A stretch of 10,664 bases of DNA. Source: a virus. Its lineage: Duplodnaviria > Heunggongvirae > Uroviricota > Caudoviricetes. The stretch is taken from IMG/VR virus record IMGVR_UViG_2675903575_000010, positions 1-10,664 of that record. The stretch is one strand, 5' to 3'. The position numbers were made by a program, and so were the translations under genes. Positions 7,262 to 10,664 of this stretch are shown piece after piece. A model generated the notes under the pieces. It was not told the DNA's origin. It was given only the letters and a program-made list of their open reading frames with translations, and did not search any database. Within the stretch, counting starts at the first letter, position 1. Each line of letters begins with the position of its first letter.

Positions 7262-7471
7262 GTGAATTGTATTAATGACCTGAACACAGGCGAGGTAAGA
7301 GGTGGTTCCGTTCATCTGGATGCGCAGACCGTTATGCGCCTTAAGCAGTACAGGATCGACCACATAAATCATCATCCTGGCCAACCATTACCAGGTGTGG
7401 CGCAGATTGTCAGACACGCAGTTAACGCGTGGCTTGATAAGAATGGTTTTGCATCTGGGGGTGAGCAATGA
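7262..7471 (+). CDS. Hypothetical small protein (69 aa), GTG start, translationally coupled to the capsid gene
   Basis: SD AAGAGGA about 7 nt upstream of the GTG. Stop overlaps the downstream ATG (ATGA). No family recognised. Confidence 0.5.
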   Translation: MNCINDLNTGEVRGGSVHLDAQTVMRLKQYRIDHINHHPGQPLPGVAQIVRHAVNAWLDKNGFASGGEQ

Positions 7472-9381
7472 ATCACTGGTACACCATTAAGGCGGCGGGT
7501 GTTCGCGGAGCGGCAGAAATATCCATCTATGAAGAAATTGGCGGCTTCGGTATCACCGCGAAGCAGTTTGCGGAAGACCTGAAAGCCCTGGGCGATGTCT
7601 CACATATCGACCTGCGGATCCATTCGCCAGGTGGTGACGTGTTTGAAGGCATCGCCATCTATAACCTGTTACGGAATCATCCGGCAGAAATTACGGTTTA
7701 TATCGATGGTGTTGCGGCTTCAATGGCTTCGGTTGTCGCAATGGCTGGCGATCGTGTTGTGATGCCGGAAAACGCCATGATGATGATACATAAGCCGTGG
7801 GGTATCTCTGGCGGAAATGCTGGTGATATGCGTGATTATGCTGATTTGCTGGATAAGGTGGAAACCGTGTTAATCCCTGCTTATGCCAGAAAAACGGGCA
7901 AATCAGCACAGGAAATTACCGCCATGCTGGAAGATGAAACCTGGATGGACGGGAAAGAATGCCTTAAGCAAGGTTTTGCTGATGAATTGTTGCCATCCGT
8001 CAGAGCAATGGCGCGAATTGAATCGAAACGCACAGGAGATTTTTCACACATGCCGGAAACCATTAAAGGAATGATTACCCCGCCACAGGGAGCAGCCAAT
8101 ATTGCTGGTAATGAACAGAAGCGCATCAACGGAATAAGTGAAGTGTTTAGCCTGTTCGACAGTCGTTACGACGGGATCAAAATGGCGTGCCTGGAAGATG
8201 CATCATGTACACCGGAGATGGCCCGTGAAAAGTTGTTGAACGAGATGGGGCGCGAGTCCACGCCATCAAATAAAAATACCCCGGCTCATATTTATGCCGG
8301 TAACGGGAACATAACAGGTGATGCAATTCGTCAGGGGCTTTATTCTCGTCTCGGGTATGAACGCCCAGAGCGGGGAAATCCTTACGCGATGATGAGCCTT
8401 TTTGAAATGGCCCAGGCATCACTAACGGATCGTGGTATCAGTGTTGGCGGTTTTTTAAATCGCTCGCAGGTCGTTAATGCAGCTTTCACACACAGCAGCA
8501 GCGATTTTTCTCATATTCTGGCTGGTGGTGCTGAAAAATCAGTACTGAAAGGCTGGCAGGACAGCGGCGAAACGTTTCAGAAATGGACGCGTACCGGATC
8601 GCTTTCAAACTTTCATGAAGCAAAGCGCGTTGGTCTGAATGGTTTTTCAAAGCTGGATAAAGTACCGGAAGGTGCGGAATATAAATACATCACCACCAGA
8701 GATAAAGGTGTACCTATTGCGCTGGCCACGTACGGGAATATTTTTTCCGTTACCCGTCAGGCCATTATCAACGATGACCTGACCCAGTTAACTACAATCC
8801 CCATGGCGATGGGGCGTGCGGCCGCCAGAACAGTAGGTAATCTGGTTTATCTTCTGTTAACCAGCAACGGCAAATTTACGGATGGTAAAGCGTTATTCCA
8901 TGCCGATCATAAAAATCTTATTGCGAAGGATATGGACATGGAGGGGCTTAACGAAGCCCGTAAGCTGATGCGACTACAGGAGGATGCCAACGGCGACTCC
9001 CTGAATATTACCCCCGCTTTTGTTCTGGTCCCTGCTGCGCTGGAGTCTGCCGCACATCGCGCCATTCTGTCATCGTCATCACTCTTTCCGGTTGATGGTG
9101 AGGGCACTATCAATCAGAACCCCGGCATCATTAACGTGGTGAAAGATATGGCTGAGGTTATTGTTGAGCCACGTCTTGATAAGAACAATAACAAGGAGTG
9201 GTATGTAGCCGCAGCGAAAGGGATGGACACGATAGAGGTCGCTTATCTTGATGGTATTGATACGCCATATCTTGAGGAGCAGGAGGGCTTTACTGTTGAT
9301 GGTGTCGCCTGGAAGGTGCGCATAGATGCAGGTGTTGCGGCCCTCGATTATCGTGGACTACTGAAATCGAGTGGAGCATGA
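7468..9381 (+). CDS. Fusion protein: N-terminal ClpP-like (S14) prohead protease domain + C-terminal putative major capsid protein
   Basis: 637 aa. N-terminal roughly 170 aa carry ClpP-type motifs: IHSPGG (compare ClpP INSPGG), GVAASMASV (catalytic Ser region), MIHKPWGISGG (compare MIHQPLGG), and GFADEL at the domain end. The remaining roughly 450 aa are assigned as capsid from size and position in a packaging module next to cos and terS; the fold itself was not verified. Confidence 0.75.
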   Translation: MNHWYTIKAAGVRGAAEISIYEEIGGFGITAKQFAEDLKALGDVSHIDLRIHSPGGDVFEGIAIYNLLRNHPAEITVYIDGVAASMASVVAMAGDRVVMPENAMMMIHKPWGISGGNAGDMRDYADLLDKVETVLIPAYARKTGKSAQEITAMLEDETWMDGKECLKQGFADELLPSVRAMARIESKRTGDFSHMPETIKGMITPPQGAANIAGNEQKRINGISEVFSLFDSRYDGIKMACLEDASCTPEMAREKLLNEMGRESTPSNKNTPAHIYAGNGNITGDAIRQGLYSRLGYERPERGNPYAMMSLFEMAQASLTDRGISVGGFLNRSQVVNAAFTHSSSDFSHILAGGAEKSVLKGWQDSGETFQKWTRTGSLSNFHEAKRVGLNGFSKLDKVPEGAEYKYITTRDKGVPIALATYGNIFSVTRQAIINDDLTQLTTIPMAMGRAAARTVGNLVYLLLTSNGKFTDGKALFHADHKNLIAKDMDMEGLNEARKLMRLQEDANGDSLNITPAFVLVPAALESAAHRAILSSSSLFPVDGEGTINQNPGIINVVKDMAEVIVEPRLDKNNNKEWYVAAAKGMDTIEVAYLDGIDTPYLEEQEGFTVDGVAWKVRIDAGVAALDYRGLLKSSGA

Positions 9382-9388
9382 CAACAAG

Positions 9389-9411
9389 GGCGGCGATAGC
9401 CGCCTTTTTTT
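9389..9411 (+). terminator. Rho-independent terminator after the capsid gene
   Basis: Perfect stem GGCGGC / GCCGCC, loop GATA, followed by 7 T. Confidence 0.6.
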
Positions 9412-9477
9412 ACGGGTCCTCCCGGTGGAGTGGCCTTACCACGGGGCGGCAGACGCGCGGGTTTTCGCTATTTATGA
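9407..9477 (+). other. cos site, copy B (lambda-type cosQ-cosN-cosB-proximal; candidate cohesive-end 12-mer GGGCGGCAGACG at 9444-9455)
   Basis: TTTACGGGTCCT (9409-9420) and CGCGGGTTTTCGCTATTTATGA (9456-9477) are identical to the sequences flanking lambda cosN as recalled (…TTTACGGGTCCTTTCCGGTGATCCGACAGGTTACG GGGCGGCGACCT CGCGGGTTTTCGCTATTTATGAAAA…), with the same 23-bp and 12-bp spacings. It lies directly upstream of a Nu1-like terS, as in lambda. Confidence 0.7.
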
Positions 9478-9588
9478 GCCTTTTTCGGGTGCTGGTGGTG
9501 GTTTTGTTGTTCGCTCTATCTCTATGAATAAAAAGGGAAAGATAAAACAAATACACCAACCTGAAACATTACTTAAGTGGGGATATTG

Positions 9589-10131
9589 ATGAAATCGCAC
9601 CTGATGAACAAAAAAAACATGGCGCAAAGCTGCCGTGTAAGTGCGACAGCGTTCGACAAGTGGGGAGTGACTCCCGTTGAACGTAAAGGCCGCGAGGCGT
9701 TTTATGATGTTGCCAGCGTAATAGACAATCGGGTTAGCAATGCAATTAACCAGATTACAGACGACAAAGGCGAGATTGATAATGATGAGCTTTTGCGAGT
9801 CAGGATCAGATTGCTGACAGCGCAGGCGGAGGCGCAGGAGCTTAAAAACGAGCGCGAACGCGGCGACGTGATTAGTACGGAATTTTGTATATATGCGCTT
9901 TCAAAACTGGCGAGTCAGATTTCATCTATCATGGACAGCCTGCCGCTTACCATGCAAAGGCGCTTCCCACAGATGACCCCCGCCATGCTGGATGGCCTGA
10001 AAAAAGAAGTTGTCAGAGCCTGTAACGCATGCACAAAACTTGATGAAAACATCCCGCGAATGCTGTCCGATTATCTGATGGAAACTACCGGAAATGTGTC
10101 TGATAAGTTTCAGCCGGATAAAGACAAGTAA
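9589..10131 (+). CDS. Small terminase subunit, lambda Nu1-like (TerS; Rpp-like in a satellite context)
   Basis: MNKKNMAQS…REAFYDVASVIDN and LLTAQAEAQELKNERERGDVISTEFCIYALSKLASQISSIMDSLPLTMQRRFPQ parallel lambda Nu1 (MEVNKKQLADIFGAS…; LTRAQADAQELKNARDSAEVVETAFCTFVLSRIAGEIASILDGLPLSVQRRFPE). Start could be ATG 9589 or ATG 9604; the track's 9577 is a GTG. Confidence 0.85.
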   Translation: MKSHLMNKKNMAQSCRVSATAFDKWGVTPVERKGREAFYDVASVIDNRVSNAINQITDDKGEIDNDELLRVRIRLLTAQAEAQELKNERERGDVISTEFCIYALSKLASQISSIMDSLPLTMQRRFPQMTPAMLDGLKKEVVRACNACTKLDENIPRMLSDYLMETTGNVSDKFQPDKDK

Positions 10132-10367
10132 CGTAGTGCACAATGACCGAAGCCAGTTTACTGACTGGCTTTCAGCGTTGCGCTGGTGGGAGTTATGCGT
10201 CAGTGATGAACAAAAAATAATCGAAATCGACACCGAAAAATAAAACATCAAGTCATATCAATATATTGCATTGGTGGTGATGACGAATAAAAATGCAAAA
10301 ACTAGCCTTTTTCCGCGATGCTCCCGCCCCGTGGCAGGGCACCCCACCAGGAGGACCCGCCATCACT

Positions 10368-10664
10368 ATGGAGGCCATGACCATGACCGAGACCGAAGCG
10401 CTCGGGATAATCCGCAGTATTACCGGAATCAGCCAGCAGGCTGACGAACAGGCCACGCAGCCGGATACAGTCACCGCTGAAAATTACGCGCGTGTGATGG
10501 CTGAGGTGATGCGCCGTGACGGTATCGAGCTTAATGGCGTGGATATACGCAACATACGCACCAGAGTTCTGGAGATGTTGTCGTACCGTCGCCGCGTGCA
10601 GATGTACCAGGAGAAAGAAAAAATTACGTACCAGTGGAAGAAGCCGGAGCGGTTACGGCGATAA
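10368..10664 (+). CDS. Hypothetical protein downstream of terS (start ambiguous: 10293, 10368 or 10383)
   Basis: Complete ORF ending TAA at 10662-10664. GGAGG at 10370-10374 gives good spacing for ATG 10383; AGGAGGA at 10349-10355 precedes ATG 10368. Too small to be a large terminase. No family recognised. Confidence 0.45.
   Translation: MEAMTMTETEALGIIRSITGISQQADEQATQPDTVTAENYARVMAEVMRRDGIELNGVDIRNIRTRVLEMLSYRRRVQMYQEKEKITYQWKKPERLRR

Follow-up and report, generated by a model that had tools for sequence, protein, structure and literature searches.

The stretch of DNA analysed here (the window; 10,664 nucleotides, IMG/VR virus record IMGVR_UViG_2675903575_000010) is a phage-satellite island of Escherichia coli, namely a Gram-negative phage-inducible chromosomal island (PICI) of the cos type that belongs to the EcCICFT073 family, and the end of it studied in this work (9389-10664) is the DNA-packaging module of the island. 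The specificity gene of this module encodes a genuine, full-architecture small terminase subunit (TerS) of the Nu1/gp1 family, which follows a lambda-type cos carrying an island-specific ('private') cosB, and no large terminase subunit (TerL) is encoded with it because this subunit is borrowed from the helper phage. We propose that the island TerS binds the private cosB and recruits the helper TerL, a genuine TerS thus doing the job of Rpp, and regard this mechanism as one that could equally prove right or wrong. The elements of the module, together with an additional cos site located further upstream, are the following:

6869-7120, plus strand: cos A, an extra cos in direct orientation, with cosQ at 6877-6883 and the cohesive-end 12-mer GGGCGGGAGCAT at 6907-6918
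9389-9411, plus strand: G+C hairpin GGCGGCGATAGCCGCC and then a T7 run, just 3' of the capsid-fusion gene and abutting cosQ
9414-9420, plus strand: cosQ-like heptamer GGGTCCT of cos B, the private cos, equivalent to cos1 of EcCICFT073
9444-9455, plus strand: predicted 12-nt cohesive end GGGCGGCAGACG within cosN of cos B (GGGCGGCGACCT in lambda)
9456-9588, plus strand: island-specific cosB region, its first ~22 nt lambda-like (CGCGGGTTTTCGCTATTTATGA) and followed by the private cosB segment (GGTGCTGGTGGTGGTTTTGTTGTTCGC...), with TTGTTGTT at 9504-9511
9589-10131, plus strand: TerS of the Nu1/gp1 family, 180 aa, with a winged helix-turn-helix, a helical central region that is conserved and a Nu1-type C-terminal region
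10208-10317, minus strand: phage-type cosB flank of cos C, 81% identical to the PhiR47_1 cos region
10313-10358, minus strand: cos C, an inverted cosQ/cosN equivalent to cos2 of EcCICFT073, with the 12-mer GGGCGGGAGCAT at 10318-10329
10383-10664, plus strand: 93-aa gene, PHROG 1561, homologue of c1505 of EcCICFT073 and last gene of the island

The island small terminase

A preliminary description of the window had recognised a Nu1-like TerS after cos B, and profile and sequence comparisons bear this assignment out. The protein scores 81.8 bits against Pfam PF07471 (cut-off 30) in a match that spans residues 68-151 only (profile positions 78-161 of 164), and PHROG 57 'terminase small subunit' matches it over its full length (E 9e-52). 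In tblastn comparisons it shares 47% identity with N15 gp1 and 36.5% with lambda Nu1 over 88-95% of its length, both proteins being alignable with it from end to end, N-terminal DNA-binding domains included. Taken separately, its DNA-binding domain, central region and C-terminal region are 58%, 54% and 37% identical to their N15 counterparts and 39%, 56% and 40% identical to those of lambda. The Nu1-type C-terminal pattern F-P...L-K...A-N...E-x-I-P...Y is kept in the island protein, the C-terminal region of which carries a 13-residue tail extension. Translation is taken to start at ATG 9589, which is the RefSeq start and has the cosN 12-mer of cos B (9444-9455) immediately upstream; GTG 9577 was rejected as an alternative start in favour of it. 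The AlphaFold2 (AF2) model displays a strand, two helices, a wing and a third helix (residues 5-60) followed by long helices, and its best Foldseek match is the phage TerS DNA-binding domain 7LWR_A (probability 1.0, TM 0.72 over 51 residues, E 0.055), with MerR-type domains coming next.

Among the phages in INPHARED none is at least 60% identical to the island TerS, the best being N15 gp1 with the 47% given above. The relatives of the protein form two groups, a satellite clade with at least 54% identity and phage-type proteins with 31-41%; members of the satellite clade, which come from Kosakonia, Superficieibacter and Enterobacter/Citrobacter, have a capsid homologue upstream and no TerL. A chimeric variant of 194 aa (P0221), encoded by the islands L013-L015 on E. 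coli contigs at the phoQ site, consists of a phage-21-like DNA-binding domain plus linker joined at RLT.AQADAQELKN to a satellite-type C-terminal half, and a long 21-like cosB lies upstream of the chimeric terS in these islands.

The cos sites of the window

The search for cos sites relied on the composite pattern GGGTCCT-N19-23-CGGGGCGG-N6-CGCGG, corresponding to lambda cosQ plus cosN, in which GGGTCCT is what we take, from established lambda knowledge, to be cosQ. The pattern occurs three times in the window, at 6877-6923 (plus strand), 9414-9460 (plus strand) and 10313-10358 (minus strand), and not once in 200 shuffles. At cos B, where a cos-like site had been noticed earlier, 55 of 78 aligned bases are moreover identical to lambda cos (29 of 35 after the cosN-core segment), so that this site can be regarded as confirmed. 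The hairpin at 9389-9411 looks like a terminator, and the order hairpin, T run and cosQ is also found 5' of cos1 in EcCICFT073 and of cos A in the window. Nicking at 9444-9455 is predicted by homology with the genome ends of lambda, N15 and Tritos. To the right of it, the region 9456-9588, within which the GGTGGTGG/TTGTTGTT segment sits, is where we propose that the island TerS binds. The cosB of N15 displays TTGTTGTT at a similar position, near its R3, and the private segment GAGCCTTTTTCGGGTGCTGGTGGTGGTTTTGTTGTTCGC is kept in four TerS-type islands irrespective of their cosQ/cosN-left type. Across the islands the DNA-binding domain of TerS co-varies with cosB, the N15-like domain going with the private segment and the 21-like N-terminus with a 21-like cosB. 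This co-variation is the best in-silico support for the notion that TerS would read the cosB adjacent to its own gene.

The two other sites are of phage type. cos A is placed between the genes for the single-stranded DNA-binding protein (SSB) and the capsid protein, 2,537 bp upstream of cos B; its right flank is near-identical to Tritos cosB over ~170 bp, up to the start of the Tritos terS, and its 12-mer (GGGCGGGAGCAT) is unlike that of cos B (GGGCGGCAGACG). No cos occurs at this position in the sister islands with lambda-type capsid genes. As for cos C, 10291-10329 on the minus strand matches bases 1-39 of Tritos with 97.4% identity. Each of the six islands inspected has an inverted phage-type cos with a phage-like cosB after its specificity gene and before the 93-aa gene, and the loci in question (10208-10365 on the minus strand of the window, L006 12860-12920, L009 23265-23340 and intergenic positions in L011, L012 and L013) are of either the Tritos/PhiR47 or the lambda/21 type. 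One idea is that the inversion would stop cos C from serving as a premature terminator for packaging from the private cos.

Absence of a large terminase gene

The preliminary description had interpreted cos B and its terS as an Rpp-like, TerS-only module that uses the TerL of the helper, leaving room for a TerL gene beyond position 10664. The module is indeed TerS-only, with no TerL downstream, and its likeness to Rpp is confined to position and analogy. The reservation about sequence past the window can be dropped: E. coli RM11911 carries an island with 100% identity over 9300-10664, in which 634 bp of non-coding DNA separate the end of the 93-aa gene from the chromosomal core gene yejO downstream. 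A TerL beyond the window was rejected on account of this identical island, and one elsewhere within the window because no terminase domain was found in any other open reading frame (ORF).

This arrangement extends to the relatives of the island. In four islands at three insertion sites, the next core gene being yejO, clpS or phoQ, no TerL is encoded 3' of the 93-aa gene, and sister islands end alike at cspD/clpS, at roxA/phoQ in O157:H7 and at tRNA-Pro in ATCC 25922. The phoQ-site islands with the chimeric TerS (L013-L015) have no TerL, and no TerL of their own is present in the Enterobacter/Citrobacter satellites embedded in prophage gene E. A scan made with one genome per species showed that the two closest TerS relatives (54-57% identical) belong to satellites without TerL, and that a gpA-type TerL overlaps or adjoins the end of TerS in 12 of the 12 phage-type loci retaining sequence downstream of terS.

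The 93-aa gene

The ORF that follows terS is small and complete in the window, as first described; its length had been put at no more than 123 aa, and here the description needs correction. The 123-aa reading (start 10293) was rejected because its first 30 codons, 10293-10382, hold the inverted cos, and the true gene encodes 93 aa (10383-10664). Its MTE start is present in 20 out of 20 aligned homologues, 19 of which begin there, GGAGG stands 8 nt upstream of the start at 10383 and the RefSeq start is identical. With a dN/dS of 0.13-0.34 across six islands, this is, as judged from its sequence, a real gene under purifying selection. Database searches yielded no match for the protein in Pfam, NCBIfam, PADLOC or PDB sequences, and the annotation of PHROG 1561 reads 'unknown function'. 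The AF2 model, with three helices, is of low confidence (pLDDT 64) and retrieved nothing significant with Foldseek. Among ~50,000 phage genomes there was no clear homologue but one weak partial match in a Klebsiella phage, and a set of 1.84 billion proteins yielded no more than 36 representatives, close relatives or fragments without exception, which makes the family a narrow one. Eleven separate stretches of a 2,175-aa protein (P0256) match residues 28-60 of the 93-aa protein with 33% identity.

The homologue in EcCICFT073 is 74% identical to the 93-aa protein, and primers listed in the supplement of PMC6739421 place pJP2220 ('c1505') on the 93-aa gene of CFT073 (L009). c1505 was among the post-ori genes cloned in pBAD18, of which only c1503 reduced lambda plaques (PMC6739421). 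The construction primers of c1504-07::cat run from just past the rppA stop to well beyond c1505, hence both cos2 and c1505 are missing from this strain, which appears in the strain list of the study; the transfer assays there were done with cat-marked EcCICFT073 (PMC6739421). These data indicate that c1505 does not act against lambda on its own and is dispensable for transfer mediated by lambda or phi80. The suggestion that the small ORF could be a packaging accessory or an interference factor finds no support in them, c1505 having caused no reduction of lambda plaques, and a Ppi-like interference role was rejected on the same basis. Within the PICI family the 93-aa gene is conserved as an accessory gene and does not belong to the core packaging components.

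How the island TerS may act

According to our proposal, helper-induced excision and replication of the island would be followed by synthesis of a Nu1-family TerS from the island gene. This protein would bind the island cosB (9456-9588), to the right of the lambda-type cosN, with its N-terminal winged-helix domain, and its Nu1-type central and C-terminal regions would assemble with the helper large terminase. The helper terminase would then nick cosN at 9444-9455 and move island concatemers into helper-made heads, packaging terminating at the next cosQ/cosN. The module would in this way replace the role of Rpp with a genuine TerS, as is the case of the TerS of pac-type Staphylococcus aureus pathogenicity islands (SaPIs). 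We infer cosB binding and TerL recruitment because the DNA-binding domain co-varies with cosB and the Nu1-type C-terminus is retained.

Several points weigh against this proposal. The gene content, the lack of a TerL, the homologies, the layout common to the family and the co-variation of the DNA-binding domain with cosB are observed, and it is from the sequences that DNA binding, TerL recruitment and independence from the helper TerS would be deduced. The AF2 model of TerS is of moderate confidence (pLDDT 66), its Foldseek matches having weak E-values (0.055). The TerL-binding C-terminal region is only 37-40% identical to those of lambda and N15, a divergence similar to that between lambda and 21 (31% identity), and the terminase subunits of lambda and 21 are described in the literature as non-interchangeable. 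None of the INPHARED phages has a TerS at 60% identity or above. It is to Tritos-type phages that cos A, the cosQ/cosN-left half of cos B and the capsid module bear a resemblance, and these phages have a TerL with only 24% identity to lambda gpA and a TerS with only 18% identity to the island TerS. Mixed oligomers with the helper TerS are quite possible because phage TerSs share 52-56% identity with the island protein in the central oligomerisation region, and EcCICFT073 strictly requires the helper TerS (PMC6739421, PMC9026076).

The main rival to direct TerL recruitment builds on such mixed complexes. It holds that the island protein works in the mode of Rpp on a TerS scaffold, forming mixed dimers or oligomers with the helper TerS through the central region, thereby blocking recognition of the phage cosB and retargeting the TerS-TerL complex to the island cosB. 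We consider this rather unlikely. The terS gene does occupy the exact rppA slot of the same PICI family, the central region shows its 52-56% identity to TerSs of the lambda, N15 and 21 types alike, the helper TerS is needed by EcCICFT073 (PMC6739421, PMC9026076) and the C-terminal region has diverged from every known phage TerS. However, there is no sequence relationship between TerS and Rpp, the Nu1-type C-terminal region, missing in Rpp (PMC9026076), is present in the island protein and the chimeric variants retain the satellite-specific C-terminal half. It is also conceivable, if improbable, that the phage-type cos A and/or cos C package the island by means of the unmodified helper terminase, TerS being mainly a dominant-negative interference factor or redundant. 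The near-identity of the right flank of cos A with Tritos cosB (~170 bp), the 81% identity of cos C to PhiR47_1, the occurrence of the inverted phage-type cos in 6 out of 6 islands and the finding that cloned cos2 of EcCICFT073 is functional and supports residual transfer (PMC6092414) would all fit such a situation. Against it, cos1 is needed for efficient transfer of EcCICFT073 and deletion of cos2 raises transfer (PMC6092414, PMC6739421), the private cosB varies in concert with the DNA-binding domain of TerS, sister islands do without cos A and terS is kept intact in 772 genomes. A decayed prophage, i.e. a functionless terS left over from a lambdoid prophage that has lost TerL and the late operon, would explain a normal phage-type TerS with a capsid gene nearby, but it is hardly credible in view of a compact ~11-kb layout, with PICI hallmarks and no other phage genes, that is shared by islands of several genera and at several attachment sites, of the purifying selection on the adjoining 93-aa gene, and of a satellite TerS that forms its own clade with no phage at 60% identity or more.

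Distribution, mosaicism and significance

The terS gene together with the private cosB segment, searched for at a nucleotide identity of at least 80%, is present in 772 of the 5,426 complete E. coli genomes, among them O157:H7 strains and ATCC 25922. A query with rppA, which also catches rppB, retrieved 97 of the same 5,426 genomes, RppC being too diverged for this count. The rppA slot thus holds a genuine TerS about 8 times more often than rppA/B (772 vs 97), and it is with a genuine TerS, not with the experimentally studied rppA/B, that the packaging module most often occurs in E. coli. It is tempting to speculate, albeit very tentatively, that a Nu1-type TerS is the majority packaging strategy of the cos-type PICIs of E. 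coli, forming a hybrid terminase with the helper TerL independently of the helper TerS and combined with one or two cos sites that mimic those of phages (an inverted one, joined here by another in direct orientation), such that an island of ~11 kb could be packaged by up to three terminase specificities and the 93-aa gene would act together with the inverted cos.

To our knowledge, Rpp is the only mechanism worked out for cos-type Gram-negative PICIs. PICIs move virulence and defence genes between enterobacteria. The choice of helper TerL, and the dependence on or poisoning of the helper TerS, would determine which phages mobilise a large share of the E. coli PICIs. There is also a lesson for annotation, in that a terS without terL beside a capsid gene is a hallmark of satellites and not the sign of a broken prophage.

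The window begins to resemble most TerS-type islands at 9441, a position within the cosN of cos B. On its left, the cosQ/cosN-left half varies in step with the capsid module, on its right the other half does so with terS, and cosN behaves, as far as these alignments tell, as a recombination or module boundary. The left module is lambda-type with E/D homologues in the sister islands and Tritos-like in the window, where a fusion of ClpP-like protease and major capsid protein (ClpP-MCP) at 7468-9381 stands in place of the lambda E-like MCP and D-like decoration genes (L006 10161-11552; L009 20668-22070). In Shewanella prophages a ClpP-MCP fusion with 46-50% identity to that of the window occurs together with a terminase of the gpA type. 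The replication gene is swapped as well, from the D5/P4-type primase-helicase of the window (4080-5885) to a RepA-family helicase in RM11911 (L001 9257-10663); as the RM11911 island is identical over 9300-10664, this swap denotes mosaicism within one island lineage.

Gene content and insertion site of the island

The architecture of the window is standard for a known satellite family. Its genes outside the packaging module, which like those of the module are all on the plus strand, comprise:

1-1242, plus strand: tyrosine integrase
1772-1978, plus strand: AlpA
plus strand: DUF4222 protein
4080-5885, plus strand: D5/P4-type primase-helicase, 601 aa
6414-6836, plus strand: SSB
7468-9381, plus strand: ClpP-like prohead protease/major capsid protein fusion (capsid-homologue module), directly 5' of the cos-terS module

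The capsid fusion is 57% identical to the Tritos capsid protein. The set found in one direction, int, alpA, a primase-replicase with ori, a capsid homologue and terS, is that of the PICI core components listed in bioRxiv 10.1101/2022.09.14.508007, terS being one of the five core markers in the PICI model of SatelliteFinder (bioRxiv 10.1101/2022.09.14.508007). No tail, lysis, portal or TerL genes were found among the ORFs of the window or in the annotation of the identical island. Helper-induced excision, replication and high-frequency transfer have been demonstrated for EcCICFT073 only (PMC6092414).

A cluster of direct and inverted GGTGAACAGT/AACTGTTCACC repeats right after the primase gene (5884-6100) is probably an iteron-type replication origin. 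A 372-aa ORF in the mechanical ORF list (1983-3101) overlaps a region to which RefSeq assigns small genes in the related RM11911 island, namely YlcI/YnfO on the minus strand, an ash fragment and an Icd-like gene; the ORF is probably spurious and not a gene. The island is inserted at tRNA-Pro, between yejM and yejO, and its ~11.0 kb extend from this tRNA gene as far as a partial copy of the tRNA 3' end. This approximate copy marks the right attachment site (~L001 15883-15900), ~530 bp past the end of the window; k-mer matching disclosed no exact attachment-site core, only arm-type repeats and the approximate copy of the tRNA 3' end. Short repeats situated 5' of int and again near the right end, TAGCTACACG in L001 (5006-5075, 15798-15830) and GGTGTAGTTAAT in L006 (3359-3373, 13817-13840), are probably arm-type sites of the integrase.

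Comparison with known systems

The closest studied system is EcCICFT073 (Fillol-Salom 2018/2019), which we located in the CFT073 genome as a succession of capsid and decoration genes, hairpin, cos1 (plus strand), rppA (c1503, 144 aa), inverted cos2, the 93-aa gene and phoQ. The window island resembles it in having a capsid homologue, a terminator hairpin, a lambda-type cosQ/cosN with a private cosB, a specificity gene, an inverted cos, the 93-aa gene and no TerL. It differs in bearing a 180-aa Nu1-family TerS in the rppA slot, whereas the specificity gene of EcCICFT073 is unrelated in sequence, in its ClpP-MCP fusion, which contrasts with the lambda E/D homologues of EcCICFT073, and in the third cos, which is in direct orientation. 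Homology of the island TerS to Rpp was rejected: BLASTP against RppA returned no alignment at E<=100, comparison of profiles with hhalign gave a probability of 2.4% and a PDB sequence search produced no match to the Rpp structures 6HLK/6HN7 at E<=1. Rpps are proteins of 139-154 aa without the Nu1-type C-terminal region (PMC9026076), and Murialdo and Feiss attribute their need for the helper TerS to the lack of this TerL-binding C-terminus (PMC9026076). The island TerS retains the Nu1 C-terminal region absent from Rpp and is encoded between sites of the cos1 and inverted cos2 types. In EcCICFT073 itself, an island-encoded factor recognises the cosB of cos1 (PMC6739421). A terS homologue was already noted in some Gram-negative PICIs by Fillol-Salom 2018 (PMC6092414), and we found no paper in the literature that characterises the terS of such islands.

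SaPIs provide a parallel from Gram-positive hosts. They likewise encode only a TerS homologue (TerS-S), with which the helper TerL packages island DNA (PMC6739421, PMC6092414), and differ in their headful (pac) instead of cos packaging, in the unrelated family of the protein and in their hosts. No equivalent of the SaPI protein Ppi was identified in the window; lambda is not blocked by the homologue of the sole candidate, the 93-aa gene.

Other enterobacterial satellites also combine a capsid gene with terS. Capsid-forming PICIs (cf-PICIs) do so and possess in addition their own TerL, HNH, portal, protease and head-tail connectors (bioRxiv 10.1101/2022.09.08.507074); in the island described here there is no TerL, HNH, portal or head-tail connector among the ORFs of the window or in the annotation of the identical island, only the protease-capsid fusion. 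Helper-embedded satellites such as 11capE (bioRxiv 10.1101/2022.07.18.500453) have a TerS 57-59% identical to that of the island, the order capsid-decoration-terS and no TerL of their own; they differ in inserting in gene E of lambdoid prophages, the window island being at a tRNA gene, and in having no 93-aa gene. In Enterobacter/Citrobacter satellites (L016-L018 6559-7916) two minus-strand genes replace the 93-aa gene; they encode an FRG-domain protein and a DUF3892 protein and may be cargo or defence genes.

Finally, lambda gpNu1 and N15 gp1 are of the same family as the island TerS, with the same domain order and the same position immediately 3' of cos. The phages differ in that a gpA-type TerL adjoins or overlaps terS (the 12 loci of the scan; TerL also in lambda, N15 and Tritos), whereas the island has none, and the island TerS departs from its phage counterparts by a diverged C-terminal region with 13 residues added at the tail. 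Its N15-like DNA-binding domain goes with a short N15-like cosB bearing TTGTTGTT.

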